Virus record (IMG/VR): IMGVR_UViG_3300033388_007794
Location: 1-50,807 of that record
From: a virus
Lineage: Duplodnaviria; Caudoviricetes
DNA: 50,807 bases
Strand: one strand, 5' to 3'
How positions within the stretch are numbered: the first letter of the stretch is position 1; the number at the start of each line of letters is the position of its first letter. Position numbers and translations under genes: made by a program. This document shows positions 1 through 50,807 of this stretch, in pieces. The notes beneath the pieces are model-generated. The model saw only the letters and a program-made list of their open reading frames with translations. It ran no database searches and was not told the DNA's origin.

Positions 1-976
1 GCTTGAGCACGTCCGCCGCAAATTTACCCAGCTCGCTCCACAAATGCAGGTATTCTTTGGGATAAGGAGGATCGGTAAAAATGAGATTAACAGTTTCTGC
101 TTCAACCTTTAATTTGCGGAAGTCGCAATGATAAAGCTGAATGTTAGTATCTACACCAGCGTCCGTTTCTTCAATAGCAGACCTTTTCGCTTCCCTGGCG
201 ATTCTTTCTAACCGCTTTAATTCAACTCTTTTTGCCGGGATAGCCTTCCCTGCTATACCGACCGCCTTTATTACTCGTTCAATGTCCCTGGGCTTGTCTA
301 CCACAACATACGGTTTTGGCTCCGGTTTTTCAATCAGCATATCGTCTTCTTCGTCGTAGCTCTCTTCTAAATCAAATGCACTCTTGTCATAAGTAAATTC
401 CTCGTGACAGTTGCTACACTCTATCTTCTTTGGCCAACCCATATCGTCTAGCCACTTTTTGCTCCATTTTGCATGGCCGCAGTAAGGACATTCCAGTGCA
501 GGAATAGCTAAAAACCAGTTCACTTCAGCCTTCTTGTGTTTCCTGGCCGGGTACTGCTTGCCGTCAGTGCCGGTGATAGTCTCAGGTGCGGAAATTTCCG
601 CACCTCGGAACCAGTATCTTATAGTTCCTTCATCCACCCCCAGCACCTTCGCAATTCTCCGGTAACTCCAATTGTACGGCGGTAGGCGCAACTCCTTAGC
701 TTTCTGTTGCTTCCACTCCTTCGGTAAATGCCGCCGGTGAATGTTCAGCTTTAATACATGCTCGGCTTTTTCGTCCTCGCTTAATCCAATGCGGACAATG
801 CTGGGCCATTCTTTTATTCCTAATTCCTGACACGCCCTTACCCTATGGTGGCCATCCAAAATATTGCCATCTTCATCATACTCAACCGGCACCAACACAC
901 CACGCTCTGCTATATCTGCCTTCAGTGCTTCATATTCGTCCTGTGTCAGCGGAGGCAGTAATTGATACTTTTGCAC
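1..976 (-). CDS. ParB-like N-terminal domain + HTH + Zn-ribbon + amino (N6A/N4C) DNA methyltransferase fusion; runs off the left edge
   Basis: Not in ORF track. Manual translation from GTG at 976: MQKYQLLPPLTQDEYEALKADIAERGVLVPVEYDEDGNILDGHHRVRAC (ParB DGHHR), WSYRRIAKVLGVDEGTIRYW (HTH), CPYC...CSNC, then NLIFTDPPY (MTase motif IV). GGGAGAG RBS upstream. Confidence 0.85.
   Translation of the reverse strand, partial: MQKYQLLPPLTQDEYEALKADIAERGVLVPVEYDEDGNILDGHHRVRACQELGIKEWPSIVRIGLSEDEKAEHVLKLNIHRRHLPKEWKQQKAKELRLPPYNWSYRRIAKVLGVDEGTIRYWFRGAEISAPETITGTDGKQYPARKHKKAEVNWFLAIPALECPYCGHAKWSKKWLDDMGWPKKIECSNCHEEFTYDKSAFDLEESYDEEDDMLIEKPEPKPYVVVDKPRDIERVIKAVGIAGKAIPAKRVELKRLERIAREAKRSAIEETDAGVDTNIQLYHCDFRKLKVEAETVNLIFTDPPYPKEYLHLWSELGKFAADVLK
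584..605. repeat. Perfect 22-bp palindrome AGGTGCGGAAATTTCCGCACCT (parS-like)
   Basis: Read directly; lies just downstream of the HTH-coding segment of the ParB-MTase gene. The parS role is inferred. Confidence 0.6.
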
Positions 977-1020
977 TTTCCATCTCTCCCTAATATTTTT
1001 CCCCTCTCCCTTTGTAAATA

Positions 1021-1090
1021 AAAAACCGCCTGGCAGAAAGGCGGGAGAGTACACCTTTCCTTTCGCTCGCGCGCAGCTAGCCAGAGCGGT
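1021..1090 (-). promoter_or_regulatory. Structured leader/attenuator-like RNA upstream of the ParB-MTase gene
   Basis: Minus strand: outer stem ACCGC-T-CTGGC/GCCAG-GCGGT followed by a T-run; inner stem GAAAGGTG/CGCCTTTC. The CTCTCCC in its loop is complementary to the downstream GGGAGAG RBS. Confidence 0.5.
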
Positions 1091-1115: not shown

Positions 1116-2018
1116 CTACAATCTCCTCCGGGCAATTCCTTCACAGCAACGGCATGCAGGATGCAAAGGCGGCCCCACAATTCCACCTTCATAAGTCCCG
1201 TTTATCGGTGCTCGCTTGCCGTCCATCTCCTCACAACGTTCACAAGCCCGCTCATCAGGCGTATAAATCCATTCCCTCTCTACTTCGTTCGGATCAAGCA
1301 ATCCTTCCTCCACCGCCTGGGACCAGCATTCTCGCACTCCATAATTGCTGGCGGCCATGGTTTCAGTACGCGCAATCAGCTCCGCTCTTCTCCGCAGCAA
1401 CCGCTTCGCGTAATTGTCCGCCATCTCATTAACCTGTTTTAGCGGCCGCGTGCCGTCTTCGGCAAGCCTCCGCCAGTAATTATCGACGGCCCGCATTTGT
1501 CTTTCGGTCAACCCGATATAATTTCGGATTTTCCTCGCCTGTTCATATGGATGCCCGCCCTCCTCAAACGCCTGGCGGATTATCGCCCGGATGGCCTGAC
1601 GGCTTTCCTCGGTTATCTGCGTAATCAGCTCACCCGTGTGCTGGTTTATAAACTCAACCGCCCTGGGGTTGAGCAGGTCAAATCGAAGCTCCGCTTTCAG
1701 TTTTTCGCCCAGCCTCCGGGCGGTGGCTTTTCCCACTTCACCCACGATCTCCTGAAAAGCATCCTTTACGGTTATGAACCCTGCTCCGAATACGCCCCAA
1801 TCGATCATGTTCTCTACCGAAGCTAAGTCGCCATGCCGTAAAGCTTCCGCCATCCTCGCCACTACAACTTTCCCCTGTGTTGCGGCTACGGCAAGAAAGA
1901 AAGCTCTCTTGACTTTATCCAGCTTGCTGTCAGCTACGCGGTGGAGCAGTTTCCACTCCGGGTCTTTTGGGTTTACAGCTTTTAGGATGCGCTGCTTTGG
2001 TAGCCTTGAAATGAACAT
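1116..2018 (-). CDS. MuF / SPP1 gp7-like minor head protein
   Basis: RAELIARTET, EREWIYTPDERACERC and PPLHPACRC motifs; directly follows portal. Confidence 0.9.
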   Translation of the reverse strand: MFISRLPKQRILKAVNPKDPEWKLLHRVADSKLDKVKRAFFLAVAATQGKVVVARMAEALRHGDLASVENMIDWGVFGAGFITVKDAFQEIVGEVGKATARRLGEKLKAELRFDLLNPRAVEFINQHTGELITQITEESRQAIRAIIRQAFEEGGHPYEQARKIRNYIGLTERQMRAVDNYWRRLAEDGTRPLKQVNEMADNYAKRLLRRRAELIARTETMAASNYGVRECWSQAVEEGLLDPNEVEREWIYTPDERACERCEEMDGKRAPINGTYEGGIVGPPLHPACRCCEGIARRRL

Positions 2019-3292
2019 TATTCCTCATCCACTCCCCCGCTGGGCAGATTGGCTACTTCGAGCAGGTACTTCTCAAGCTCTTTGTTTGGGAACAAAGGCA
2101 TGCCTGCCCCGCTGAGCCGTTGTATAAATTCCCCAAGTTCGCTTAGTTCTACGCTCTCAATGTCCCCGTGGCGAAGCTCGGGGTAATTCTCGACCTTAAA
2201 GTCGTTAAGCTTGAACAGCCTTGACACCGCGTGGGTGTTAAACACATTCTCAATCTCGTCCAGGAAAGCACCAATAGCCACGGCAAACAGATTAGTTTTG
2301 GAACTTGCCAAAGCGTAGCTCCCCACTTTCTGCGTCCCCAGCATGATAAAATCCGCCAGTACGGTCTGGGCAATCCGAGTGTCGTACCTCTGGATAATAG
2401 CACCGGTGTCGAACTGCCGCCTGCCTCCCGTCGAAAGCAACTGAATGTCATACAGTCTATTCCCTTTCTCGTCATAAGCCAGTGGCATGACTATACCTTC
2501 CTGCTGGTCGCGACGTATTTTAGTTACTAGTTCTTTAAACTTCCGTTGCGCCGTTCTTTCCTCATCCGTCTGGGGGTTGGCTACATTAGGCGGCACCCAC
2601 ACGATGGGGAGCCCCGCTAAATCACGCTCAATTCCAATACCCTCAATAGCCTCGATATTCTTTTTGAAATAGTAACTTTTATATGCATTTCTAAGAATCG
2701 ACCTTCCTTCCGGCGAGCCTTTGGTCGCCTCTGTCCTGAAAAGCAGCGACTTTTCTATCGGAATTTCCCTGATTTTATAATCCGGCGGCGCGCTTTGCCG
2801 CATAGCTTGTATGCCGCCTTCCTCGTCGAATACCCACTCAACAAGCGTTTCCTGCGCCCGGATAGGGAGCTTGCGCCAGCCGATGCGACCGTCGGTGTAT
2901 TTACTTCGCTTCGCGGGGTTGCGGCTGTCTCCCATACGGCGCTTCAGGACTATTTCATGCCAGGACCACCCGAATACCAGCATAGACAGAACTTCGCTAA
3001 TTGTATCTTGCCAGGACATACTCATATCATAGAGACAGCTTTCCAAAAACGCTGCCGCTTCCCTGTCAGCGTTGCTCGTCCCGGCGGCTTCAACCCGCCA
3101 TGTAACCTGACGGCAGAGCATCTTGATAGCAAACAGAATAGCGCCAATTACCGGGTCGTTATCACGCATTTCTTTATAGACTCGGATGGCTTTAACGCCC
3201 TGGAGCTCGGGCAACCACTCCTCGGCTATGTAGCCGCCCCAGCGAGATAAGCCTGTGCTGCCCAATTCAAGGAAAATGTTTGTCTGCGCCAA
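2018..3292 (-). CDS. Portal protein (DUF935-like)
   Basis: Position after terL; EMRDNDPVIG, PEGRSILRNAY, EGIGIERDLAGLP and GSYALA motifs. Confidence 0.85.
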   Translation of the reverse strand: MAQTNIFLELGSTGLSRWGGYIAEEWLPELQGVKAIRVYKEMRDNDPVIGAILFAIKMLCRQVTWRVEAAGTSNADREAAAFLESCLYDMSMSWQDTISEVLSMLVFGWSWHEIVLKRRMGDSRNPAKRSKYTDGRIGWRKLPIRAQETLVEWVFDEEGGIQAMRQSAPPDYKIREIPIEKSLLFRTEATKGSPEGRSILRNAYKSYYFKKNIEAIEGIGIERDLAGLPIVWVPPNVANPQTDEERTAQRKFKELVTKIRRDQQEGIVMPLAYDEKGNRLYDIQLLSTGGRRQFDTGAIIQRYDTRIAQTVLADFIMLGTQKVGSYALASSKTNLFAVAIGAFLDEIENVFNTHAVSRLFKLNDFKVENYPELRHGDIESVELSELGEFIQRLSGAGMPLFPNKELEKYLLEVANLPSGGVDEE

Positions 3293-3295
3293 ACC

Positions 3296-4540
3296 TCATC
3301 GCCTCCAGCGGCTTTCGCCTTCGATACTAGTAGGAACAAGAATAGGTACTGCACGACTGAAATGAGTAAAAAGTGCATACCTGTTTCTATCTTGACTGTG
3401 ATCATTCTGTTTTAATGGTTTGTCTTCGCCTTTCAACTGTGCCTTTGGGTCCCACACATAAGAATTGAACTCAGCAATAGTATGCCTGCAGCTCGGGTCA
3501 ACAAAAAACCGCTCCTGGGTCAGCATAGACGCCACAAAGCGGATTCCATCTGTAACCTCATTATCCGCACCTTTTACCTGATAACCCCGTTTTCTGAGTT
3601 CAGCTATGAAACTGGTGGCCGAGGGGTCGACATATATCGCCTCCGGCCTAATATCACCAAGCCACTCTTTGAAGTCATCGGCATACTCAGCGTCCGTCTT
3701 TTGTCTTCCTGCCTCTTTGGAGTCATACCAGTACTCCCTTGTCAGGTAGACCACAGGTTTCGAGTCGTCATTCCAGCCGTAAAGCCCGAATGTGCATGGG
3801 TTGCTGGTGCCATAGTCTATCCCTACTATGAACCGTTTCAAACCTGCAGGAGCAAGTCTAACATGTTTGGATTCGTCCCACATGTCATAAACCGCACCTT
3901 CAGCCTGCACCCACAGACCTAAGATAAAGCGTTTATACCACAGGCCTACGTATTCTTTTTTAAGCTCTTCAACAAAATCTGGGTCGAGATTTAAATTGTC
4001 GTCAAGCTGGAAACGCCAGCGTTTTAAGTTTAGTTCGCTGGTGCGTTCAAGGTAATTTTTATTGAACCAGTGATAGGGCGAGTCCGGGTTTGTTGTCCCG
4101 ATAAACCGCGCCCCCGGCACTGAAAGCCGGGAAAGCAACATAGTAAAGAAACTCTCCGGCCACAGCGTTATTTCGTCGCCATAGGCTCCGACCAGCGTCA
4201 TGCCTCGGATTTTACCTTCGGCCCGCTCGTCACTGGCCCCAGCCAGGTATACCCGTCGGCCAAACAGCGTCGCTTCGCCAGCACCACGATTAAGCTTGAA
4301 GTGCTTACTCCCTATCACCTGCTCAAGCAGGTCAAGCACGTTGCGCTTCAAAGTCCGTTCCGTCTTACCCACCATGAGCAGTTCGCCTGGCGGGGCTTCG
4401 GCTACAAACGCAATCCACGCCACCAGGCTGGCGATTGTCTTGCCGGAACGGACGGAGCCATCGAGGATATTCAAACGTGCGGTGGTATTGACAACAACGT
4501 TAAGCTGCTTCCGCGAAAACTTCCCCCAGGCAAAACTCAT
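3296..4540 (-). CDS. terL: Terminase large subunit (PBSX-type)
   Basis: Walker A GSVRSGKT, Walker B YGDE, TTNPDSPYHW, nuclease GIDYG and DHSQDRNRY. Confidence 0.95.
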   Translation of the reverse strand: MSFAWGKFSRKQLNVVVNTTARLNILDGSVRSGKTIASLVAWIAFVAEAPPGELLMVGKTERTLKRNVLDLLEQVIGSKHFKLNRGAGEATLFGRRVYLAGASDERAEGKIRGMTLVGAYGDEITLWPESFFTMLLSRLSVPGARFIGTTNPDSPYHWFNKNYLERTSELNLKRWRFQLDDNLNLDPDFVEELKKEYVGLWYKRFILGLWVQAEGAVYDMWDESKHVRLAPAGLKRFIVGIDYGTSNPCTFGLYGWNDDSKPVVYLTREYWYDSKEAGRQKTDAEYADDFKEWLGDIRPEAIYVDPSATSFIAELRKRGYQVKGADNEVTDGIRFVASMLTQERFFVDPSCRHTIAEFNSYVWDPKAQLKGEDKPLKQNDHSQDRNRYALFTHFSRAVPILVPTSIEGESRWRR

Positions 4541-24575: not shown

Positions 24576-25274
24576 CTAAAATTTATCTGTGAAAACATGC
24601 CGGAACCGCCACATCAGCACGCCGTCCAGATTGCTTGCTCCCAGTTTATCGAATTCTGGGTCGAAGAAGGTTGTCAGCCTCGTTTTATCCCACCCCACCA
24701 CAGGGGCGTAGAGATCATAGACACTGGCATAAGGGAGATTGTTGCTAAAGATATGCGCCCATACGTCCTTCCAGGACCAGTCCGCTATGGGCCAGCACTC
24801 AAGGATCACGCCAATGCTCTGCTCTCTATTTATGCGTCTCCTGCGCTTCAAAGACTCCTCTCGCCGCAGGCCGACAAAGGCCAGGTCATAACCTTCTTCT
24901 TTCAACTTGGGCACTAGTTTGCCGAGATATTCCCTGCCCAGGACGTTTACCGCCCTGCGCCCAAGCCGTTTATACTCGGGGCTGGTCTCCACACGGATAT
25001 TCTTTGCGCCGATTTTTTTGGCATTATTTATAAATTCAGCTTCCAGCCAGCGCGGGATGTAGTAGGGGCCATAATCCCAGTGAAGAACCAGCACATTCGG
25101 CTTCTGTTCCATCACCAGGTGCAGAACGCAGGTAGAGTCTTTTCCGCCAGAAAAGGCTACGTAAGGTTTCTTATTTCTCTGCAACGCCTTCCTGATTATA
25201 TCCCGTGACTCCTCGACTTTTTTCTTGTGCTCATCCATTTCTGCCCATTTGCGAAGGACTTCTTTCCAACCCAT
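24576..25274 (-). CDS. cysH: CysH/PAPS-reductase-family protein (type IV-B associated)
   Basis: PP-loop AFSGGKDS, GLRREESLKRR, PIADWSWKDVW. Confidence 0.88.
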   Translation of the reverse strand: MGWKEVLRKWAEMDEHKKKVEESRDIIRKALQRNKKPYVAFSGGKDSTCVLHLVMEQKPNVLVLHWDYGPYYIPRWLEAEFINNAKKIGAKNIRVETSPEYKRLGRRAVNVLGREYLGKLVPKLKEEGYDLAFVGLRREESLKRRRRINREQSIGVILECWPIADWSWKDVWAHIFSNNLPYASVYDLYAPVVGWDKTRLTTFFDPEFDKLGASNLDGVLMWRFRHVFTDKF

Positions 25275-28482: not shown

Positions 28483-29574
28483 CTAATTCGGCCTAATCAG
28501 CCTGGCTTGCCTGCCTTCCCATTTGACCAGGTAGCCCATATTTCCGCCGACGAAGCGGACAGGGACGAGCATTCGACTCTTTTCGGAAATTCTGGCAGGT
28601 TCGTCCATCAAGATTTCCCTGCCATCAACGTCTGCAAGGACGCTGTCAGGGCGCAGGATAATCTCCTTTGCCTGCCTCGGAACTACGGCGTCTGTAGAAG
28701 TCCATGATTCAAAAAAATACCAGCAGACGTCTCCGCCACCGGTCGGGTCGAAATGCGTCAACACGAACTCGTAAGGCAAGTAGGCGTAGCCTCCCTGCCC
28801 CCACTGCGTTCCCCAGGAATTCCGCAGAATGAACGCGTGCTTACTGTCGTCATAGCCGACCAGGGCGACGGCGTGCCCTCCAAGAATGCGTCCCCGGGGA
28901 ATCGGGATGACATAATCCGGAGTTTTAACGTCGAAGAAGTTTTCGCAGACAAGCAAAGCTCCGACGATGGGGCCTTCCCGACTGATTGCTTCTTTCATCA
29001 ATTGGACGGCCCTTTGTCGCTGCTCTGGTGTATCTGTCGGATCTGCCAGCTTTGCGTAGGAAGCTATCACGTAATCTTCGGCGGCCTCGTGGTGAAAAGA
29101 CCTCACTTCGGGAACCTTCGGAGCGGATAGACTCAGCAGTTCTGAATAAGGCAAGCAATCCTCCGAACACACGCCATAATCTTTGAGAACCTTGTACGCG
29201 ACTCTCAAATACGTCCCTTCGCGGTCGGGTATTCCATCTTTCTTTTTGCACATGGCGTAGAGGTAAGCCGCGGACAGCCCGTTTGCCGGGAAGTCTCCTT
29301 GCGAGATTTCCTCGAAGGCTTTGTCCGACCAGGCAACAGCGCACGCCGCGCACGAGCCTCTACTACCCTGGTTGAAGACAGGCGGCAGGTTCGGCCTGTA
29401 ATCAACCTTGTCTGGTAGTGGCGTTTCGGGAGCGCGCGCCTGCAAAACGCGCTCGTACAGGAAGTCCCGCTTGTCCGGCGGGCTGGGCTGACAGGGCAAC
29501 AAAAAATCCCCGTACTGTTGCGGGGATTCTTCTACCGTTTTTCGCAAATTAAGATAATTTTCAAGCTCAATCAA
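28483..29574 (-). CDS. Papain-family (C1) cysteine peptidase with C-terminal copper-amine-oxidase-N-like domain
   Basis: NQGSRGSCAACA, GGHAVALVGY, RNSWG; C-terminal SRMLVPVRFVGGNMGYLVKW. Confidence 0.85.
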   Translation of the reverse strand: MIELENYLNLRKTVEESPQQYGDFLLPCQPSPPDKRDFLYERVLQARAPETPLPDKVDYRPNLPPVFNQGSRGSCAACAVAWSDKAFEEISQGDFPANGLSAAYLYAMCKKKDGIPDREGTYLRVAYKVLKDYGVCSEDCLPYSELLSLSAPKVPEVRSFHHEAAEDYVIASYAKLADPTDTPEQRQRAVQLMKEAISREGPIVGALLVCENFFDVKTPDYVIPIPRGRILGGHAVALVGYDDSKHAFILRNSWGTQWGQGGYAYLPYEFVLTHFDPTGGGDVCWYFFESWTSTDAVVPRQAKEIILRPDSVLADVDGREILMDEPARISEKSRMLVPVRFVGGNMGYLVKWEGRQARLIRPN

Positions 29575-39318: not shown

Positions 39319-39732
39319 TTACGCATAGGTTCCACGGGTAATATCCCCAGTCACCTGGAATTCACAACTAAAACTTCCTACGTCGTCAACCGGCGTTTCA
39401 GCTTCATAACTTGTGCAGATGCAGTTCCCAGTGTACTTCACTTTGCCGGAGGTACTTCCTTGAGGCCCATATTCAAAGGCCACTTCCAACCCTAGAATAC
39501 CGTTCAAGTGTTCGTCTACAGTGGGATCAAAAACACCGTCAATGCTGATTGTAGCATCTTTCAGTCCAGCAATATAACTTTTTGCTGTTGCGCCTAGTGT
39601 CGTGGTTTCGTGCGTTTCAGCCTCTTCTGGGAAGGAAACACTCTTAACATAGGTTGAAATATCAGTAGGTGTGCTGGTCGCTCCCGAAGTACCAAACTTG
39701 ATTACTGCTGTAGAGCCATGAGAAAATGACAT
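39319..39732 (-). CDS. Major tail (tube) protein
   Basis: ETHETTTLG...GLKDATISIDG...YGPQG...YTG...FQVTG; AAGGAGG RBS. Confidence 0.82.
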   Translation of the reverse strand: MSFSHGSTAVIKFGTSGATSTPTDISTYVKSVSFPEEAETHETTTLGATAKSYIAGLKDATISIDGVFDPTVDEHLNGILGLEVAFEYGPQGSTSGKVKYTGNCICTSYEAETPVDDVGSFSCEFQVTGDITRGTYA

Positions 39733-39820: not shown

Positions 39821-40549
39821 CTATTTCCTTCCAAACGCAACGCTGAACGTCGCGCTAGTAGTATCTGCACCTAATGTCCAAACTGCCCTAACATACCTCT
39901 TTATCGTTCCTGTTGCAGTAATTCTTTGTGCTGTATTCGCTGATGTTACCTGCGTGAAGGTGCATACTGCACTCCAGGCATCGGTTGCTCCGTCATCGTC
40001 TGAATGTTGAATTGTTATATCTAGGGTCGGGCTTGTGCCAGCCAATCCAGTTACTTGCAGGTATGCTACTCCACCGTTGGCCGTGCTTACCCCGTTGTCA
40101 ATGCTCGTGCTGTTGCCACTCGTGGCTTCTTCGCCAAGCGGGTGAAATGTTAACACTCTTTCCAACCCCGTTTTGCTTTGCGCTTCGGCAGAAATTGCAG
40201 CTACATCATCAACAGGTGTTTCTACTTCGTAGCTCGTTTCTATTGCGTCAAATCCATAACCCGCGTCTTCTACTGCCACTTCCCCCTGCGGGAAGTAAGT
40301 CCAGATGCTGGCGTCCTGTCCAAGCGCTGCCTGCATGATTTCATCTATTCCGCTTGTATCACCGTCAAAAACACCGTCCGCGCTCAGGGTTGCATCCTTT
40401 AGCCCTGCTATATAGGATTTTGCAGTAGCCGTAAATGTCGTTACATCATGCGTTTCCGCCTCGCCTGATATGGAAAAGTTTTTCAGGTATGCGCTCAGGT
40501 CGTAGCCGTTCACGTATACCCGCGCATTGCTGCCATGTTTGAAGGACAA
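39821..40549 (-). CDS. Second tail-tube paralogue with an extra C-terminal beta domain
   Basis: Shares ATAKSYIAGLKDAT and ETPVDDV with 39319..39732. Confidence 0.75.
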   Translation of the reverse strand: MSFKHGSNARVYVNGYDLSAYLKNFSISGEAETHDVTTFTATAKSYIAGLKDATLSADGVFDGDTSGIDEIMQAALGQDASIWTYFPQGEVAVEDAGYGFDAIETSYEVETPVDDVAAISAEAQSKTGLERVLTFHPLGEEATSGNSTSIDNGVSTANGGVAYLQVTGLAGTSPTLDITIQHSDDDGATDAWSAVCTFTQVTSANTAQRITATGTIKRYVRAVWTLGADTTSATFSVAFGRK

Positions 40550-43841: not shown

Positions 43842-44174
43842 TCACTTTCCTTTTGCCTTGTCAAGATTGAGCGGAGCAAGTTCATCCATTAACCGCTCTT
43901 CTCGCTCTGTCTGCCTATCTTCTTCCTCCGGTGTCAGGGCCTTCCCGGAATGGCGTTTATCCCCATGATGGGTACGCTCAGCGAGGCCGATAAACTCGGC
44001 CCCGCATTCAGCGCATTTATAAGTTTCAGCTTTCTTCTCAACCGGGGCAAAGTAGCCCAGGCGTATTAACTTTTCATCATTTTTCGCGCCAACAAGTTCT
44101 ACAATTTGTCCCCGGTCAAGTTCCTGTCCAGCATAGCCGAAAGGACGTCTGGCCCAATAGTATTTTTTCGGCAT
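43842..44174 (-). CDS. Hypothetical head-region protein with Zn-finger-like segment
   Basis: CAECGAEF...H..K.H; overlaps the capsid stop. Confidence 0.65.
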   Translation of the reverse strand: MPKKYYWARRPFGYAGQELDRGQIVELVGAKNDEKLIRLGYFAPVEKKAETYKCAECGAEFIGLAERTHHGDKRHSGKALTPEEEDRQTEREERLMDELAPLNLDKAKGK

Positions 44175-45130
44175 TATGCGACAGCCCCCGACATAAAGAG
44201 TCCGGCGTTGGCACCGGTCTTCTTCTGGTCAAAATAAGTGTTCGCCTCTATGATGTCCACTTCACGTTCCTCATCGCGCATCCGCTTGATGTACTGAAGC
44301 GCGTTTGCTACTACCTGCCAAACAAAGGTATATCCGGCAGCAGGGGTAAGCAGAGACGGCCTGTCGGGTACATAGATCATCAGGGCGTTCTTCCCCCAGA
44401 TCCGGCTGTACGATACCGAAGCCTCAGCAGTTCCTTCAGGAGATGCAGTATAAATCGCACGACCAATCAGCACTTTTTCAAATTCCGCCAGGGCTTTGAA
44501 CAGGTCAAGAGTAAGTTGCCCCTTTTGGGTGTACTTAATTGTGTCAATTAAATCCGGGTGCCACTTCAGTTTTAACCAAACTTGCTTACCTAGTACCAAC
44601 ACATTAGGCTCGCGCCCGATTAAGGCTTCAACTGCATCTTTATAGTCGGCCAAATCGACTAGCGGGCTGGAATTGGCATAGTCGCTCCAGACAGTAAAAT
44701 CAACACCTCCGGTCTTGTCCGTACCCCAAACACCGGTCGTGAAAAAGTCGGTAGCGAAAGCAACCTCCCGGCGCATCTGAAGCTTATCCGTCACCCATTC
44801 GGTCGCGTCCCGGTCGAGGTTGAACGGCGCGTCTGCATTCTTCCTAGTTTCATCGTCGATCTCTTTCCTGATCGAGTACCGGTCGCAGAAGTACTTCGCA
44901 GTCGTTGTTACCTTCCATCCGCCGCCGGCAGACTTGGTGCCAGGCGCACGCAGCTTGGCCTCATCCCTGAACCAGTGAGACTGGTCGTACTGCGGGATGA
45001 TGTCCGACTGTTTCTGCACAGGTACAATCGGGAAAATCTGGTCAGCAATATATTCGGGGTTCTTATAGCCAATAGAAATGTTTGTGAGAAGTTGATCAAT
45101 ATGGAGACTCGAAGCCACAGGGTTAGCCAT
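44174..45130 (-). CDS. Major capsid protein
   Basis: HIDQLLTNISIGYKN..YIADQIFPIVPV; 318 aa; follows scaffold and decoration genes. Confidence 0.88.
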   Translation of the reverse strand: MANPVASSLHIDQLLTNISIGYKNPEYIADQIFPIVPVQKQSDIIPQYDQSHWFRDEAKLRAPGTKSAGGGWKVTTTAKYFCDRYSIRKEIDDETRKNADAPFNLDRDATEWVTDKLQMRREVAFATDFFTTGVWGTDKTGGVDFTVWSDYANSSPLVDLADYKDAVEALIGREPNVLVLGKQVWLKLKWHPDLIDTIKYTQKGQLTLDLFKALAEFEKVLIGRAIYTASPEGTAEASVSYSRIWGKNALMIYVPDRPSLLTPAAGYTFVWQVVANALQYIKRMRDEEREVDIIEANTYFDQKKTGANAGLFMSGAVA

Positions 45131-45160: not shown

Positions 45161-45553
45161 TTAAGTTGTGCTCAGCGTGAACGGCCCAGTCAACAGGACG
45201 CGAATAACCGTCCCATCGGCAGACGAAGCATCAAGCGCAATGCCGGCAATAAAATCCTTGTCAGTTGCCTTCTTTACGGCCTTGCCGCTTGCGTCTGTGC
45301 CTACGTAGTCTCCGACAGCAATGTTGGTACCGGAGCCGTCAGACACGACCTTACTGATACCTAGAACTCGAACCTGTGCCGCATGGCCTGCTGTAGGTTT
45401 ATTCTGCAATACACCGATCGGCTTGTCTGCTGCGTTATCGCAGACATCCACCTGGTCGGCGGCACTCAGCTCAACAAAGTAATACTGCTTTGAACTCAGG
45501 TCGTTCTCAGCCTTTGCGCTGATGTCGAATACAGCCATTTCGGTTGCCATCAA
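45161..45553 (-). CDS. Capsid decoration/cement protein (DUF2190-like)
   Basis: IGVLQNKP...GDYVGTDASGKAV...GIAL. Confidence 0.78.
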   Translation of the reverse strand: MMATEMAVFDISAKAENDLSSKQYYFVELSAADQVDVCDNAADKPIGVLQNKPTAGHAAQVRVLGISKVVSDGSGTNIAVGDYVGTDASGKAVKKATDKDFIAGIALDASSADGTVIRVLLTGPFTLSTT

Positions 45554-45564
45554 TATCTACCTCC

Positions 45565-46443
45565 TTAAATCTTGACCGCAGTCTCTTTGCGGTACTGCTC
45601 ATAGAGCTTAGGGTTCTCGGCCAGCACTTTTGCCAGTGCGTCCATCCTGCTCAAGTTGGCGTCTTTCTGCACCAGCCCCGCTGCCATGGCCTCGACCTTG
45701 GCAACAGCGGAGTCGCCAGCAGGCATGCCGCCTCGACCAATTTCGGCGTAGAGTGCGCCTTTCTCAATGGCTTCATTAGCCGCCTTCAGTACACCTTCGA
45801 GCTTGGTGTACTCTTCCGGCGCTTTTTCAGCCAGGCCCTTGAGCACCAATCCGAATTCTTCCGGCTTGGTTGGTAAATTAGCAAACTCGTCAGCGGCTTT
45901 CTGAATAAACTCCTTGCGAAGCTGCTTGTCGCGCTCTTCCTTGAGTACTTTTTCAAGCTCTTCAGCTTTCTTGACGGCTTCCTGCTGTTCTTTCCAGAGT
46001 GCCTCTACCGCAGGACGAACTTCTTCTGGAATGCCGGAAAAGTCATAGCTTCCGTCTTCCTTTTTGGTCGGTGCCGGATAGCCATATTTCTTCTTCTTGT
46101 CCTCTTCTTCATCTTTTTTGCCCTTAGCCTTCTCAGCCGGTTCGGGGTAGCCGTAGCCGGCAAGACCGGCTAAGGTTTTCATGATGTCTTTCGGGAGCTC
46201 GTCCTTGTATGCCGACAAAATTTTGAGTGCTCCTTTTACGGCTCCTTTTGCTTTGTCGGACAGCTTGGCTGCTTTCAAAACCTCTTCGACCTTCTGCTCG
46301 TCTTCAAGTTCAGTTTCCAAAACAGCCTTGAGAATTTCTTCCATAGGTGGATCATCCTCCTTAAAAATTAGGAACTTTTTACGATTTGCCCCGCGTGGGA
46401 CGAGGCTCACTTCCACAACATCTAAATCTTTCAGCCTATTCAC
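45565..46443 (-). CDS. Scaffold protein with N-terminal protease-fold strand
   Basis: LKDLDVVEVSLVPRGAN N-terminus, K/E-rich coiled coil, NPKLYEQY tail. Confidence 0.8.
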   Translation of the reverse strand: MNRLKDLDVVEVSLVPRGANRKKFLIFKEDDPPMEEILKAVLETELEDEQKVEEVLKAAKLSDKAKGAVKGALKILSAYKDELPKDIMKTLAGLAGYGYPEPAEKAKGKKDEEEDKKKKYGYPAPTKKEDGSYDFSGIPEEVRPAVEALWKEQQEAVKKAEELEKVLKEERDKQLRKEFIQKAADEFANLPTKPEEFGLVLKGLAEKAPEEYTKLEGVLKAANEAIEKGALYAEIGRGGMPAGDSAVAKVEAMAAGLVQKDANLSRMDALAKVLAENPKLYEQYRKETAVKI

Positions 46444-46446
46444 ACC

Positions 46447-49400
46447 TTACACCACCTCCTCACGAATCCCGAAACCCCCGACACTAAAGCCCGTTATAAC
46501 ACCCTCTTTAACTTGTCTCCATAAATTGTCATCGCTAATATGAACGCTCATTATCCATGACCCCTTCTTGACCTTATGGCCGTTGATTTCTAAGTCCTGT
46601 GGAGCAGTATACGATTCAACAACTTCAGCTTTAGCTTTCTTGCTATGCCGATAACCAATCACACGGGATTTGAGCATAAAACGATAGGCCGCATCTTCTA
46701 TGCTCTGGGCTGATATAACATCGCCCTGAGAATCCACCGTGTCTGGTTCCAGAACTACTCCCGTTACTATTTGCTTTTCGTCCGCTTTAAGTATCGCGGC
46801 GTGGTATTCTTTAGCAACTTTGGCTTTTGCCACATCGATTTTTTGTACGGGCTTCCCTGGTTCATCAGCCCACAACAACCACTTTTGCCCCTTTTGCTTC
46901 AGCTCGCTTATAACATCAGCGAGGTCGTGGGTTTTTGTGTACGGTTCTTGCGATTTTGGCCGGTTCACAAGCCACACCCTGCGCCCCTGTTCCATCGGGG
47001 CATATTGGATAAGCAACCGTCCTTTCAGATGCTTGCCGTCTAAGAAAAGCTCGCGGCCATGCTCTCTAGCGAATGAGAACTTATATTCGCCACCGTCAAG
47101 CTTAAAAAATTTACTATACGTCTGGCTTGTAGAACCTGGCCCACCTGGCTCGGAGATATAGGGCTCTTTATCTGTAATAGTGATCCACTCAACTGGCTGG
47201 AATAACTTAAACTGGCCCTGTAAGCTGTCATCGGGCGGCAGTTCAAGCAAGCGGCTTCCATATTTTGTCTTGCGGATGTCTTCGGTATCTCCTTCAAAAA
47301 CCGAAAAGCCCCAAGCTGTTTCATCGTCTATCTGAAAGCGTAAATCACCGTGGACGCTATGATTAGTCTTCAATAGCTCCTCATGGCTAAGCTTGGTTTC
47401 TTCTTCTGTCAGCCCACGCCAGTGCATCTGATATACCCACCTGCCGCGCCCGGACTTGGGGTACATGTTATGCCACTCTTCTTCATATAGCTTTGCTGCT
47501 ACTTCAGCTCTGGTATCGCCTTCTTCGCCTAAACGGTCAGCTTTCTTCACTTGCTTTAATGCCTGCTTGATCTGCTTTACCTTCCTTGCTACTTCTCCAC
47601 TGTCCCCAAACCGCCTCACCGCTACCGGATGCGGCAAAACAAAATCCGCCCGGTCTCCCAGGACGGATTTGGCGGTCTGGCCGAGCGCCACTACAATTTG
47701 CGGGTTGGCTTTATCAAGTTCCTGATACAACCAGTCGCGCCACTCTTCTATTTCCTGCTCGTTCGGCTCTCTCACTCTTCCTCTGTCGTCCGTTAACAGG
47801 ACTGGCACAACGTTAGTCAAGAAAACGTCTTTTCTGGTTAAGCCCAATGGTTTCAGGTAAAGCTCGTTCAACGTTTCTCCACAAGGCCCGACAAACGGCT
47901 CTCCCCTTGCCGCTTCAATCGGGCCGGGGGAGGCACCAATAAAAGCTATCTTTGCATTCTTCGACCCGGTGCCGGGGACTATCTCCCGCGCGGCCTTTTG
48001 CAATACTTGCCCCCGTTTGGCAATGTCAATAGCTTGCGCAGCGGTGTATGGTTCTTTGCGTGTTTTGTCTACATCAATAGGACGCGCACCGAGCCAAGCC
48101 AGAACTTTCTTTTCTTCATCAGGGAGAAGTTCAAGTACTTCGCAGGTTATAACATCCCCGACCTGAGCCTTAACGGTGCTGGTGGAGAAAGTTTTACCTA
48201 AATCAATATATTCCTTGTCGCCAAGCTTTCGGGTATTACGCCACTCCATGCCCACGCTCGGTAGGAGGCCACCATAATAATTTACCGTGCCAGGCGTCTT
48301 AGTTTGCTGAACCTGCAATACTTTTACCTTTAATTCAATGACCTTTTTGACTTTGCTCCACTCGTCAGTAGCCCCGTCCAGTTCATACTTCCCGCTAGCC
48401 GTCTTTGCCACAAGCCCTTCCGAGCGATCCTGATTGAATGCCCACCGAGCAGCAACTTTAAGCTCCTGCAAATTATTGCACCATTTGACCTGGGTGATAG
48501 CAAAATTCTCCTTGCCCTTCAAGTACTTATCATAGAACTGCTCCAGCTTCTTCCTGCGTTCTTTAAACGGTTTTTCGTGCAGGTCTTCATCCCAGTATGG
48601 CAGGTCGAAAACTGTCAGTATCGGCGTTTCATTTTGTTTGATGTCCGGCTTGTCGGCATTGAAAGTCATCAGGTCAGGACGCGCCACCCGCTTACCGCCA
48701 CGGAGCATCCCCAAATCGCAGTCCAGGATGAAATCGGCATCTATTTTCTCTAACGCGGCTTTAAGGCCGGCGAACTTGTGCAGTTGGTCCTTACCGTACT
48801 GCCCTTCAAACCAAAAGCGAACGCCTTTACCTTTCTTACCCTCTGCTATTCCTCGAAAGCCATTGAGCTTACCTTCCACATCAAAAAGCGTTTTGTCTTT
48901 ACCCCACTTTTCCCACAACTCATCAACCGTATATAGCTCCGTATATAATGCCACCTGCGGCTTCGGAGGAATAAACTTCTGGAATGGCTCAAGTCCCTCC
49001 TTAGTTACGTCCTCCGGCTTGCGGAACACGCCACGCACATATACCAGATCACCGTTCTCGATCTCCTTCAACTTTTCGACCTCGAACTTCGGCCTACCCT
49101 CTAACAAGTCATCCTGGGTCCAGAAGACAAAGCTAGACTTATTCCAAAAGCTCTTGTGATCGGGATGGTTAAACGCACCCTCGCCTTTCGTGCTCGGTAC
49201 CTCAAACACGAACCTGCCGCCGGGCTTCAGCACGCGCCAGATTTCGGCCATGATTTTTTCTTTGTCCGACAGGTGCTCCAAAACGTGGTTTGCACGTATC
49301 TCATCTGCGCTGTCATCCGGGTAGGGTATACCTTGCTCAAGATCATGAAGCATGTCCACCTGCGGACCCGGCTCTTTGTCGATCCCCGTATAGCCTTCAG

Positions 49401-50157
49401 GTTTAGAATCGCCACAGCCGAGGTCGAGCTTAAGCGAATCCCCTTTTACTACCTGCCGCTTCGGTTCCTCACGCCGAAGAACTAACGAATAGCAGGGCAT
49501 GAAATCTGCATGGCTCCCCTGGGGTGAATCAATAAAATGTAGAATACCTTTCTTCTCTGGGTCCAGCACTTTCCGCACAGGCAACCAGACATTGTCAGCT
49601 TGGATGAGGAAGTTTTCTCCAGATTCGTCCCTGTTGGCCCTGAAAAGCACGTCTATATCGTTCGGGTTCTCTTTGCCAACAGCCGCAGATCCTACTACCG
49701 ACACGAAGTTGGGAACCACAACCACTTCCTCTGGCAGTTCTGCCAGCTTCGCCTCCAGGCTCTGCGCCTTCTTCACATCGCGCAGTTTCTTGGCCTCCTG
49801 CACAAGTTCGCTATTCTCGTCATAATCGAAGCCTCGCCGTTCAAATTCGTCGAGTACCCAAATGGTCGCATTTACAATATCCTCCACCGATTCCTTGCGC
49901 TTCTTAGCTGCGCTATACCATTGATGCAGCCTGAGCCATGCCATGCGAACCTCATCATCCGAAGCGCCCTTCAACTTATCAGGCCGCATCTCGGTCAGAG
50001 CCATCTTCTCCAGGAAAGACGGCTCCTCCGGCTCGCGCCAGCGGGCTTTGCCCCCAGCAGAGGGCATAGCAGCTTTATGCAAATCACGCATTAGCCAGTC
50101 GGGTAAGTATTGTTTTGCTTTTTCAAGAAGGGTTTCGAGATATTCTTTGCTTGGCAT
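46447..50157 (-). CDS. Head polyprotein: NTase + SAM-MTase + ATP-dependent ligase + UDG-like + LigD phosphoesterase + XkdF-type prohead protease
   Basis: GS..DID (aa 156-169); DLGCG/HVLEH (245-295); KLNGFR, FDL, EGLVAK, WSKVK (430-604); IGASPG/PFVG/TNVV/HP (740-844); QMH...HGDLR (910-940); GVVLEPD.VDSQGD...GYRH...GSW...GFSVGG (1133-1228). Confidence 0.88.
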   Translation of the reverse strand: MPSKEYLETLLEKAKQYLPDWLMRDLHKAAMPSAGGKARWREPEEPSFLEKMALTEMRPDKLKGASDDEVRMAWLRLHQWYSAAKKRKESVEDIVNATIWVLDEFERRGFDYDENSELVQEAKKLRDVKKAQSLEAKLAELPEEVVVVPNFVSVVGSAAVGKENPNDIDVLFRANRDESGENFLIQADNVWLPVRKVLDPEKKGILHFIDSPQGSHADFMPCYSLVLRREEPKRQVVKGDSLKLDLGCGDSKPEGYTGIDKEPGPQVDMLHDLEQGIPYPDDSADEIRANHVLEHLSDKEKIMAEIWRVLKPGGRFVFEVPSTKGEGAFNHPDHKSFWNKSSFVFWTQDDLLEGRPKFEVEKLKEIENGDLVYVRGVFRKPEDVTKEGLEPFQKFIPPKPQVALYTELYTVDELWEKWGKDKTLFDVEGKLNGFRGIAEGKKGKGVRFWFEGQYGKDQLHKFAGLKAALEKIDADFILDCDLGMLRGGKRVARPDLMTFNADKPDIKQNETPILTVFDLPYWDEDLHEKPFKERRKKLEQFYDKYLKGKENFAITQVKWCNNLQELKVAARWAFNQDRSEGLVAKTASGKYELDGATDEWSKVKKVIELKVKVLQVQQTKTPGTVNYYGGLLPSVGMEWRNTRKLGDKEYIDLGKTFSTSTVKAQVGDVITCEVLELLPDEEKKVLAWLGARPIDVDKTRKEPYTAAQAIDIAKRGQVLQKAAREIVPGTGSKNAKIAFIGASPGPIEAARGEPFVGPCGETLNELYLKPLGLTRKDVFLTNVVPVLLTDDRGRVREPNEQEIEEWRDWLYQELDKANPQIVVALGQTAKSVLGDRADFVLPHPVAVRRFGDSGEVARKVKQIKQALKQVKKADRLGEEGDTRAEVAAKLYEEEWHNMYPKSGRGRWVYQMHWRGLTEEETKLSHEELLKTNHSVHGDLRFQIDDETAWGFSVFEGDTEDIRKTKYGSRLLELPPDDSLQGQFKLFQPVEWITITDKEPYISEPGGPGSTSQTYSKFFKLDGGEYKFSFAREHGRELFLDGKHLKGRLLIQYAPMEQGRRVWLVNRPKSQEPYTKTHDLADVISELKQKGQKWLLWADEPGKPVQKIDVAKAKVAKEYHAAILKADEKQIVTGVVLEPDTVDSQGDVISAQSIEDAAYRFMLKSRVIGYRHSKKAKAEVVESYTAPQDLEINGHKVKKGSWIMSVHISDDNLWRQVKEGVITGFSVGGFGIREEVV

Positions 50158-50172
50158 TTGTGATCCCCCAGT

Positions 50173-50709
50173 TTAAAAAAATCCCTGTGCGGGGCTGTAA
50201 GTTACTGCCGTCTTTTTTGACTGCCATTTCAAAGACGGTAGTGTACCAAATCTAAGCAGGTGTAAAAGATCATTTTTGCCACACACTTTGCCGTTAATTT
50301 TGATCCACTCGCTATCATCTGGCATTGTACGGGAAAATACAACTAAATAATGACCGCGATACTCTATTTTTCTTTTCCCGCGCATCGTTTGAACTGGTAC
50401 TCCATTTTTCGCTCCAGTTTCCAACAGTTGCTGTATGATCCGATGTGTATCAGATTGGTTCGCTGTAATACTTTTGCCAAATTGCTTCTCTTCTAATGTG
50501 ATTAGCCAACCTTCGCGGTAATTGAACCAGATATAGTCAAGGTTTTGACAATCAAAAAACCTGCTACTTAACTCTTCTGGACATTGTGCACTTCTTAACC
50601 AGTCGCTAAAGGGAGTAGAGCCGGTAGCAGGGCTACCACAAACCTGGCATATTACTGGATACTGGCCACAGGCCGGACATCTCGCATAATAAAAACGTTG
50701 CTTAGTCAT
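50173..50709 (-). CDS. Zn-ribbon + PD-(D/E)XK-like protein
   Basis: CPAC...CQVC, then NLDYIW...LEEK; ATGA-coupled to the MTase stop. Confidence 0.6.
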   Translation of the reverse strand: MTKQRFYYARCPACGQYPVICQVCGSPATGSTPFSDWLRSAQCPEELSSRFFDCQNLDYIWFNYREGWLITLEEKQFGKSITANQSDTHRIIQQLLETGAKNGVPVQTMRGKRKIEYRGHYLVVFSRTMPDDSEWIKINGKVCGKNDLLHLLRFGTLPSLKWQSKKTAVTYSPAQGFF

Positions 50710-50807
50710 ATGGCATCAGCCAGCCTTCGCTTTGCCATAGCAACAGCATTTGCGTCAATATCGCATCCAATAAAACGTCGTCCTAATTTCTTGGCCGCCA
50801 ATGCCGT
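50706..50807 (-). CDS. C-terminus of a beta-class DNA methyltransferase (continuation of 1..976)
   Basis: Manual translation TALAAKKLGRRFIGCDIDANAVAMAKRRLADAI*. Confidence 0.8.
   Translation of the reverse strand, partial: TALAAKKLGRRFIGCDIDANAVAMAKRRLADAI

Follow-up and report, generated by a model that had tools for sequence, protein, structure and literature searches.

Why would a phage make its head protease only as the last domain of a long chain of nucleic-acid enzymes? The question is raised by a single open reading frame (ORF) on the minus strand of the IMG/VR virus record IMGVR_UViG_3300033388_007794, a stretch of 50,807 bases that we analysed whole and call the window. The ORF encodes a polyprotein of 1236 residues in which an XkdF-type prohead protease follows a series of putative repair and modification enzymes. 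Our leading reading, which we hold at even strength, is that the polyprotein is a phage "polyvalent" head protein, and that its protease brings the attached enzymes into the procapsid for end healing and sealing of the incoming genome. The domains listed in an initial annotation of this DNA are largely confirmed, and the interpretation given to them is partly supported.

A head protease at the end of a chain of enzymes

The polyprotein divides as follows, from its N-terminus to its C-terminus.

46447..50157, minus strand: whole polyprotein ORF, 1236 amino acids (aa) plus stop, 138 kDa, no internal stops
49753..50157, minus strand: N-terminal all-helical domain, aa 1-135; AlphaFold2 (AF2) predicted local distance difference test (pLDDT) ~80-91 over aa 1-30 and 60-130
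49453..49752, minus strand: probable minimal pol-beta-type nucleotidyltransferase (NTase), aa 136-235
49003..49452, minus strand: class I S-adenosylmethionine (SAM) methyltransferase (MTase), Methyltransf_11 type, aa 236-385
48328..49002, minus strand: ATP-dependent ligase adenylation domain, aa 386-610; motif I lysine K430
48013..48327, minus strand: conserved post-ligase segment, aa 611-715; oligonucleotide/oligosaccharide-binding (OB) fold assumed from position only
47548..48012, minus strand: divergent uracil-DNA glycosylase (UDG)-superfamily domain, aa 716-870; motif 1 GASPG, motif 2 HPVAVRR, one cysteine
46933..47547, minus strand: LigD-type 3'-phosphoesterase (PE) fold, aa 871-1075; H912, H936, D938 and R940 invariant
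46798..46932, minus strand: conserved linker between PE and protease, aa 1076-1120; W1096 invariant
46450..46797, minus strand: XkdF-type prohead serine protease domain, aa 1121-1236, from Pfam, phrog_3017 and identity to B83 gp09

Residues 1123-1232 match Pfam Peptidase_S78_2 at E 5e-29 (101.2 bits against a cut-off of 24), and the domain matches phrog_3017 at E 2e-38 and is 44% identical to gp09 of Bacillus phage vB_BtS_B83. Across 31 sequences S1225, D1142 and D1146 are invariant and H1171 occurs in at least 90%; we infer that S1225, H1171 and the acidic residues are catalytic. With its place in the head module, the Pfam match bears out the XkdF-like protease of the initial annotation. An internal start that would yield free protease was sought and not found, as no in-frame start with a Shine-Dalgarno site lies ahead of the domain, and PHROG and Pfam scans of the window ORFs found no other head protease in the record. 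The sole maturation protease is therefore synthesised with its cargo attached, and the cargo is covalently joined to an enzyme that works inside procapsids. Among 116 homologues retrieved by a word-indexed search at E<=0.001, the linker between PE and protease is present in 89; full-length homologues measure 1217-1330 aa. Near-invariant lysines stand at two domain boundaries, K238 in "..VVK" before G and K721 in "VLQK" before A (P0001 alignment, residues 235-240 and 718-722), the first in the context (I/V)VK with a small residue next to it, the second in V(L/I)QK leading into a variable linker. Both lysines are possible candidates for protease cleavage sites.

The neighbouring genes that define the position of the polyprotein are these.

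3296-4540, minus strand: large terminase, head module (upstream part 1116..4540)
2018-3292, minus strand: portal, head module
1116-2018, minus strand: MuF-like head morphogenesis protein, head module
2-1054, minus strand: ParB_N-domain ORF, running off the left record end
50712-50807, minus strand: C-terminus (last 32 codons) of an N6_N4 DNA methylase, at the right record end
50173-50709, minus strand: 178-aa ORF directly upstream of the polyprotein, with CxxC pairs near its N-terminus
45565..46443, minus strand: scaffold-like protein, 292 aa; GTG start and GAGGAGG Shine-Dalgarno site of its own; N-terminal motif EVSLVPRGANRKKF
45161..45553, minus strand: cement/decoration-type protein, 130 aa; Pfam Phage_cement_2 E 8e-10
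44174..45130, minus strand: major capsid protein (MCP), 318 aa; phrog_1005 E 9e-92

Read across the record ends, the gene order is TerL-portal-MuF-(ParB/MTase, 178-aa ORF)-fusion-scaffold-cement-MCP, which places the polyprotein in the canonical XkdF protease/scaffold slot; the single 1236-aa ORF and this order agree with the earlier description of one ORF in the protease slot of the head operon. The last letters of the polyprotein are GAGGAGGTGGTG, followed by TAA GGT GTG (window 46380-46460, minus strand). The Shine-Dalgarno site of the scaffold lies inside the last codons of the polyprotein, and its GTG start falls three bases past the polyprotein TAA, in the same frame and one codon after the stop. 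Read-through of this in-frame TAA, fusing the polyprotein into the scaffold, was considered and rejected: the scaffold starts from a GAGGAGG and GTG of its own, and the two frames differ in the relative L001. The N-terminal motif of the scaffold, LKDLDVVEVSLVPRGANRKKFLIFK, is conserved across 30 aligned scaffold N-termini, with V12, F24 and K28 invariant and E11, S13, L14, V15, A19 and N20 in at least 90%. It is the counterpart of aa 6-32 in the canonical XkdF protein of B83, where it lies just upstream of the protease. Because the EVSLV..GAN..F motif precedes the protease in canonical XkdF, the arrangement in the window implies a domain rearrangement and not a simple split.

The record has a CheckV completeness estimate of 99% and is classed linear, and PHROG and Pfam scans of 57 window ORFs describe a temperate siphovirus. 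Connectors, tail tube, tape measure, Dit and endolysin lie downstream of the MCP, and a serine integrase, a CI-like repressor and replication genes are found elsewhere. The ParB_N ORF and the N6_N4 methylase end resemble one ParB-methylase gene between MuF and the polyprotein; their frames do not join exactly, so the record is either permuted or short of a few bases. The 178-aa ORF matched no PHROGs or Pfam family and has a counterpart in 0 of 80 related loci. Adjoining the endolysin gene, positions 28483-29574 (minus strand) encode a 363-aa protein with papain-family Peptidase_C1 and Cu_amine_oxidN1 domains, possibly a second lysis or cell-wall enzyme. A PAPS-reductase/PP-loop-type protein (24576-25274, minus strand; PF01507 E 6e-18) is encoded in the accessory region that separates the lysis from the lysogeny module. 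Two adjacent ORFs (39319-39732 and 39821-40549, both minus strand) belong to major-tail-protein families (phrog_10528 and phrog_9522), and would be either paralogues of the tube protein or its short and long forms.

The enzymatic domains of the cargo

Profile or fold searches, a kind of check that the initial annotation had proposed, support the protease, UDG, ligase, MTase and PE assignments but not the fold of the NTase or the OB domain. The PE was recovered with a profile of 45 homologous segments, which drew 5 PDB matches at E<=10, all of them LigD-type phosphoesterases (5dmp at 8.6e-4, 3p43 at 1.5e-3, 3p4h at 7.5e-3, 3n9b and 2lj6 near 0.8), in alignments that include the HxDxR strand and the C-terminal strands. 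The AF2 model of aa 871-1075 (pLDDT 91.6, predicted template modelling score 0.89) is an eight-strand beta-barrel with the PE fold. All 7 of its Foldseek matches at E<=0.001 are LigD PEs (E 1e-6 to 2e-4, probability 1.00), with unrelated barrels sharply below. H912, H936, D938 and R940 are conserved in 45 of 45 sequences; H936-G-D938-L-R940 aligns to the HxDxR of three PE structures, and H912 sits on the strand preceding it. In the Pseudomonas PE the Mn ligands are His42, His48 and Asp50, accompanied by Arg52 (PMC3300020), and the four residues here would correspond to these, H912 to His42 by position only. One relative, P0097, matches LigD_N at E 1.5e-5 inside the PE-homologous region, and in the BFVD collection a single viral protein shows the PE fold at E<=0.001. 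A conserved K984-L-x-Q987-P988-x-x-W991 may occupy the place of His84 and Tyr88, which would put Gln in the position of the expected His. The LigD-type 3'-phosphoesterase named at the outset is thus borne out by the custom profile, the model and Foldseek, though it is invisible to Pfam. A related protein of 814 aa (L068:3525-5966, plus strand) combines a metallo-beta-lactamase, a family-type PE (aa 261-450) and a canonical LigD_N (aa 509-612, 57 bits); the two PE paralogues stand in tandem ~60 residues apart, and the family PE profile also touches the second, canonical LigD_N copy.

The ligase rests on a match of aa 423-604 to Pfam DNA_ligase_A_M (PF01068) at E 1.3e-14 (54.8 bits against a cut-off of 26.2) and on a 20-sequence family profile that matches the archaeal ligase 3gde in the PDB at E 6e-22. 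K430, G433, R435, E580 and G581 are invariant, the first three in 20 of 20 sequences. Ligase motif I is KxDGxR and reads K430-L-N-G-F-R435 here, with N in place of a D that is present in distant members. The domain scores far below the NCBIfam cut-offs for LigD models (49 bits vs 228). The initial annotation had added an OB-like domain, and here only the ligase stands, on PF01068 and the invariant K430: the segment that follows it, aa 611-715, is conserved in 100 of the 116 homologues, but no search supports an OB fold, as its profile gave chance-level PDB matches only (best E 0.05, to thioredoxin reductase).

Upstream of the ligase, aa 264-326 match Methyltransf_11 at E 5e-11 (43.4 bits against 21.2) over the C-terminal half of the profile (positions 48-95 of 95). 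Searched as an isolated segment, the domain reaches E 1.8e-12 in Pfam; it also matches phrog_6636, and LDLGCG stands at aa 243-248. A score above the gathering value with half-profile coverage is in line with the class I SAM-MTase first proposed.

The UDG assignment holds at the level of the superfamily. Residues 728-851 match Pfam UDG at E 3e-21 (76.4 bits against a cut-off of 24.3) and PDB family-4 UDGs at E 1e-15, but fall below the NCBIfam family-4 cut-offs (80.9 vs 125.3 bits for TIGR00758 and 83.7 vs 250 for NF040953). When aligned to the UDGa of Thermus thermophilus (Tth; 1ui0), the domain keeps the Phe and the uracil-contacting Asn, and has V where 1ui0 has the Cys that follows NIVK. 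Family-4 motif B is HPS(S/A)(L/V)(L/V)R with a catalytic His; motif 2 here is H843-P844-V-A-V-R-R, with the H and P present in at least 90% of sequences, and the PDB alignments end ahead of it. Family-4 enzymes use four cysteines to bind a 4Fe-4S cluster, and aa 716-870 contain a single, non-conserved one. Judged by score, cysteines and a motif-1 glutamate discussed below, the domain is no canonical family-4 enzyme, despite the family-4-like label it was first given. Uracil recognition by the domain is plausible.

The NTase is a probable assignment. Its signature in pol-beta NTases is hG[GS]-x9-13-Dh[DE]h, and aa 136-235 contain VVG156S157-x9-D167-I-D169-V, with G156, S157, D167 and D169 invariant in 28 of 28 sequences. 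Sub-threshold matches to DUF6932 occur in 9 of these 28 members (best E 2e-4) and to NTP_transf_2 in 3 (best E 0.03), and among 30 named matches of an Atlas language-model search, 16 are NTP_transf_2 or Polbeta (scores 0.91-0.93). A word-based search for stand-alone relatives of the segment (57-184 aa) returned none. The pol-beta NTase proposed earlier thus keeps its signature but not a supported fold. The helical domain ahead of it is present in 105 of the 116 homologues; aa 1-135 gave no informative family, fold or Atlas match, and a wide structure comparison returned generic helical proteins only (Z<=6.3). We consider this domain a candidate packaging or anchoring module.

Module exchange, proposed delivery and its rivals

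Is the fusion a peculiarity of one record? Domain hidden Markov models run on the 116 homologues find the exact window order (Nterm-NTase-MTase-Lig-OB-UDG-PE-link-Prot) in 30; a further 29 are without the MTase, 15 without the UDG and 8 are Nterm-UDG-Prot, the rest being fragments or other permutations. A phmmer search with aa 37-1236 against 1.84 billion cluster representatives found 680 proteins at E<=1e-30, of which the best 150 all have E<=2.2e-90 and lengths of 257-2038 aa. From IMG/VR, 93 loci were confirmed and 80 kept; these were retrieved by PE-motif patterns, so a PE is present in all of them by construction. In tblastn searches with the window proteins, the scaffold was found in 58 of the 80 loci, the MCP in 49, MuF in 44 and the portal in 39, counts to be read with many loci cut by contig ends. 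The order portal-MuF-fusion-scaffold-cement-capsid is conserved in dozens of loci. Part of the polyprotein is matched by 282 of 50,697 phage records; none covers 80%, the best coverage being 15%. Lactococcus 28201 gp33 (349 aa) and Rhizobium RHph_Y1_11 (212 aa), both named "DNA methyltransferase/prohead protease", were set aside as too short for cargo, and the match in Synechococcus phage S-CRM01 is confined to the MTase domain of a 417-aa protein. With one genome per species for 185,579 species, 5 loci were recovered, all in metagenome-assembled genomes: one from Bacillota, three from Chloroflexota (Dehalococcoidales, Dehalococcoides and unclassified) and one from a Leptospira bin.

Most telling is the way in which relatives gain or swap modules at identical junctions. 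Acb1, an anti-CBASS phosphodiesterase, occurs in the sister proteins P0039, P0102 and P0103. In a 1342-aa relative (L057:6001-10026, plus strand) it lies at aa 362-502, with the NTase-like module on one side and the MTase on the other, and scores 79.6 bits (cut-off 27); this protein ends in the XkdF domain and is flanked by MuF/portal and by scaffold/cement/capsid. A D12 Dam methylase is an extra module in P0002, P0016, P0071, P0105 and P0113, and an 1804-aa relative (L078:4472-9883, plus strand) joins Methyltransf_11 and ligase to an ADP-ribosyltransferase (PF03496, E 1.6e-40, in two stretches), with the PE in the next ORF. Other relatives carry GNAT, metallo-beta-lactamase, 2H/LigT phosphoesterase or Zeta/AAA_33 kinase modules. 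The initial annotation had suggested a survey of cargo fused to this protease family; among the sister proteins it yields Acb1, Dam, ADP-ribosyltransferase, GNAT, metallo-beta-lactamase and 2H.

These observations give circumstantial support to the idea of virion-delivered cargo, since Acb1, Dam and ADP-ribosyltransferase, if expressed late with the structural proteins, are of no use unless they reach the next cell, and since the protease has no separate start and its gene keeps its place between portal/MuF and scaffold/capsid. We hypothesize that the protease domain would dock on the separately encoded scaffold through the conserved N-terminal motif of the latter, recruiting the polyprotein into the procapsid; such binding is suggested by canonical XkdF proteins, in which the motif is covalently adjacent to the protease. 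Once activated inside the procapsid, the protease would trim the scaffold and probably cut the polyprotein at its inter-domain linkers. At least some of the cargo would be retained in the filled head and enter the next host with the DNA. There the LigD-like set of PE, probable terminal nucleotidyltransferase and ATP-dependent ligase, the last possibly arriving pre-adenylated on K430, could act on the incoming genome before phage gene expression, closing nicks or breaks or joining the genome ends, and the UDG-like and MTase domains could recognise or modify bases. Variant family members would deliver Acb1, Dam methylase or ADP-ribosyltransferase by the same route.

A number of points tell against this account of virion delivery. 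Packaging, cleavage and ejection of the cargo are steps that we infer; for head retention and ejection the analogues are P1 Dar, T4 Alt and N4 vRNAP (reviewed in PMC5512222). Four relatives without a detected protease domain (L073, L077, L062 and L059) have their genes immediately behind terminase and portal, so there must be a packaging route other than the protease. In HK97-type systems the protease digests itself and the fragments leave the head, and a capsid holding ~51 kb of DNA has little room for many 138-kDa copies; retention of the cargo is thus not a given. Six-frame Pfam searches of the record found no Ku, no apurinic/apyrimidinic (AP) endonuclease of either family and no P-loop polynucleotide kinase, in agreement with the earlier statement that no Ku or AP endonuclease gene was recognised, and Pfam and NCBIfam recognised no archaeo-eukaryotic primase (AEP)/primase-polymerase in the polyprotein. 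With no AP endonuclease, base-excision repair would need host enzymes, and with no P-loop kinase the RNA repair of 5'-OH ends is incomplete. Base-excision repair, nonhomologous end joining and RNA repair are each incomplete.

The domains add points of their own to this list. Pfam LigD_N (PF13298) gave no match to the PE at E<=10 in either the segment or the six-frame record search. Neither Pfam nor NCBIfam matched the MTase to a DNA-MTase family (D12, N6_N4, N6_Mtase or C5). The AF2 model of the NTase part is poor (pLDDT 40-60), and sequence and fold searches of the PDB gave it no match, with no Foldseek PDB match at E<=0.001. Motif 1 of the UDG-superfamily domain is GASPG, which is the family consensus and aligns to GEGPG of Tth UDGa 1ui0. 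Family-4 motif A is GE(A/G)PG (PMC10359453), and in Tth UDGa the change of its glutamate to Ala, Asp, Asn or Gln caused a large activity loss in each case (k2/Km ~900-fold lower for E41Q), the motif-2 histidine being the key catalytic residue (PMC5387724). The initial annotation had read the enzymes as a set of the base-excision repair and end-joining type; the domains it listed largely stand, but the pathway is incomplete: Ku, AP endonuclease and AEP are absent, as is the motif-1 Glu, and the NTase is unproven. Since the chain is not LigD and the pathways are incomplete, we commit only to end healing and sealing of the incoming genome, together with modules for base recognition and modification. 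A bolder version, in which the virion holds a Ku-independent kit (PE, terminal NTase, pre-adenylated ligase, uracil-recognising module and MTase) that repairs or circularises the injected genome before expression, with the prohead protease as a general cargo loader, strikes us as doubtful.

The same late operon invites an explanation set in the producer cell. The enzymes could be released there, or at the procapsid, and clean replicated DNA of uracil, blocked 3' ends and nicks for packaging, with nothing functional in the virion. They would be present at the time of DNA packaging; lesions or ends of DNA are what the ligase, PE and UDG-like domain work on; and head proteases and scaffolds usually exit the head before or during packaging. 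We nevertheless rate this late "DNA grooming" as unlikely: the Acb1, Dam and ADP-ribosyltransferase of sister proteins are counter-defence or host-modifying enzymes needed early and not late, a covalent link to an inside-shell enzyme is odd for enzymes of the cytoplasm, and the separate replication module of this phage could carry such genes.

A delivered RNA-end repair system is an improbable alternative. The PE would heal 2',3'-cyclic and 3'-phosphate ends left by anticodon nucleases of the host or by HEPN RNases, the MTase would cap the mended junction as Hen1 does, the NTase would rebuild 3' ends, and the ligase would seal. The LigD PE does act on 3'-ribonucleotide ends (PMC3300020), the MTase is of a small-molecule/RNA type and not of a DNA-MTase family, and some relatives have 2H/LigT phosphoesterases, the Zeta/AAA_33 P-loop kinase or weak RNA_ligase matches that overlap the ligase. 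The best matches of the ligase are, however, DNA ligases, neither polyprotein nor record has a 5'-kinase, and no Hen1 model appears among the best 25 of 33 NCBIfam matches at E<=0.1; the uracil-DNA-type domain and the Dam methylase variants point to DNA. That the enzymes stay in the head and tend the packaged genome outside cells, for instance by single-turnover nick sealing, and are not meant for the host cytoplasm, fits the head-operon position and protease fusion, a pre-adenylated ligase that needs no external ATP and UDG-type enzymes that need no cofactor, but seems very improbable, as densely packed DNA would give enzymes little freedom to scan, the MTase and NTase would be without SAM and NTPs, and the Acb1 and ADP-ribosyltransferase variants would be without substrate in a capsid.

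If delivery of the cargo in the virion is true, phages bring ready-made DNA-end repair chemistry and counter-defence enzymes (Acb1, Dam and ADP-ribosyltransferase) into the cell, and these would act before transcription, in the window of time when restriction, nickases and signalling defences strike. The XkdF protease/scaffold pair would then be a modular loading device, of relevance to early infection and to the engineering of enzyme-carrying capsids. Were the Ku-independent kit to hold as well, it would be the first virion-borne phage DNA repair system and a natural programmable capsid-targeting platform. The family is large and has no cultured member, and with it a part of the biology of uncultured phages of Bacillota and Chloroflexota is still to be explored.

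Relation to known systems

The polyvalent concept and the component domain families were already known; we did not find in print the repair cassette on an XkdF protease, the size of the family or its absence from cultured phages. Polyvalent proteins of phages and conjugative elements are a computationally defined class (Iyer, Burroughs, Anand, de Souza, Aravind 2017; PMC5512222), with 2-15 functionally diverse domains in one polypeptide and with predicted head packaging and injection. As described there, they resemble the polyprotein in having many unrelated enzymatic domains per chain, genes that adjoin portal, terminase and MuF, a prohead-type ("assemblin-like") peptidase always at the C-terminus, and methylase, pol-beta NTase, GNAT, ADP-ribosyltransferase and 2H modules. 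The polyprotein belongs to this class by domain count and packaging-gene neighbourhood, and its transfer into a recipient cell is predicted. They differ in that the main text of PMC5512222 has 0 mentions of "XkdF" and "glycosylase", uses "ligase" for RNA ligases only, and describes NTases of firmicute conjugative elements fused to ArdC-N. By these word counts the cassette of DNA ligase, LigD-type PE and UDG is absent from that main text, though the full architecture lists of the paper might include it. The initial annotation had not recognised the architecture as a characterised system; the general class was in fact published in 2017, but the ligase/PE/UDG set on XkdF is not in its main text. 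Our literature searches found no published account of a LigD phosphoesterase in phage virions (most subscription journals lay outside the search), nor of XkdF fused to a ligase, methyltransferase or glycosylase (a jumbo-phage review alone mentioned XkdF, in searches that were not restricted to it).

LigD joins end healing, nucleotide addition and sealing (PMC3300020). The polyprotein shares with it a same-fold PE that keeps the H..HxDxR metal motif, an ATP-dependent ligase and a nucleotide-adding domain in one chain, and it differs in having no AEP-type POL, no Ku in the genome, a place in a phage head operon and a protease fusion. A minimal pol-beta-like NTase may stand in place of the LigD POL. 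The Ku of mycobacteriophages Corndog and Omega is reportedly used in circularising the incoming genome, with host LigD borrowed (Pitcher et al. 2006). Those phages encode Ku, whereas this one brings ligase and PE and no Ku.

P1 DarB, T4 Alt and other internal proteins, and N4 vRNAP are likewise loaded into heads and injected with the DNA, as protectors or for host takeover (PMC5512222), and DarB-like and other large proteins have been detected in the virions of a Thermus phage (bioRxiv 10.64898/2026.04.20.719267). The P1, T4 and N4 proteins were shown experimentally in virions; none of them is fused to a head protease, and none is a ligase/PE/UDG set. The closest comparison for the protease itself is the canonical XkdF protein of B83, 398 aa in length, which shares the 44% identity given above and the same slot, after portal/MuF and before the capsid protein, in the order portal, MuF, two small ORFs, XkdF-like protease and capsid protein. 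The B83 chain consists of N-terminal motif, protease and scaffold tail with no cargo, whereas in the window the protease comes last in a cargo protein of 1236 aa, with motif and scaffold in the ORF that follows.

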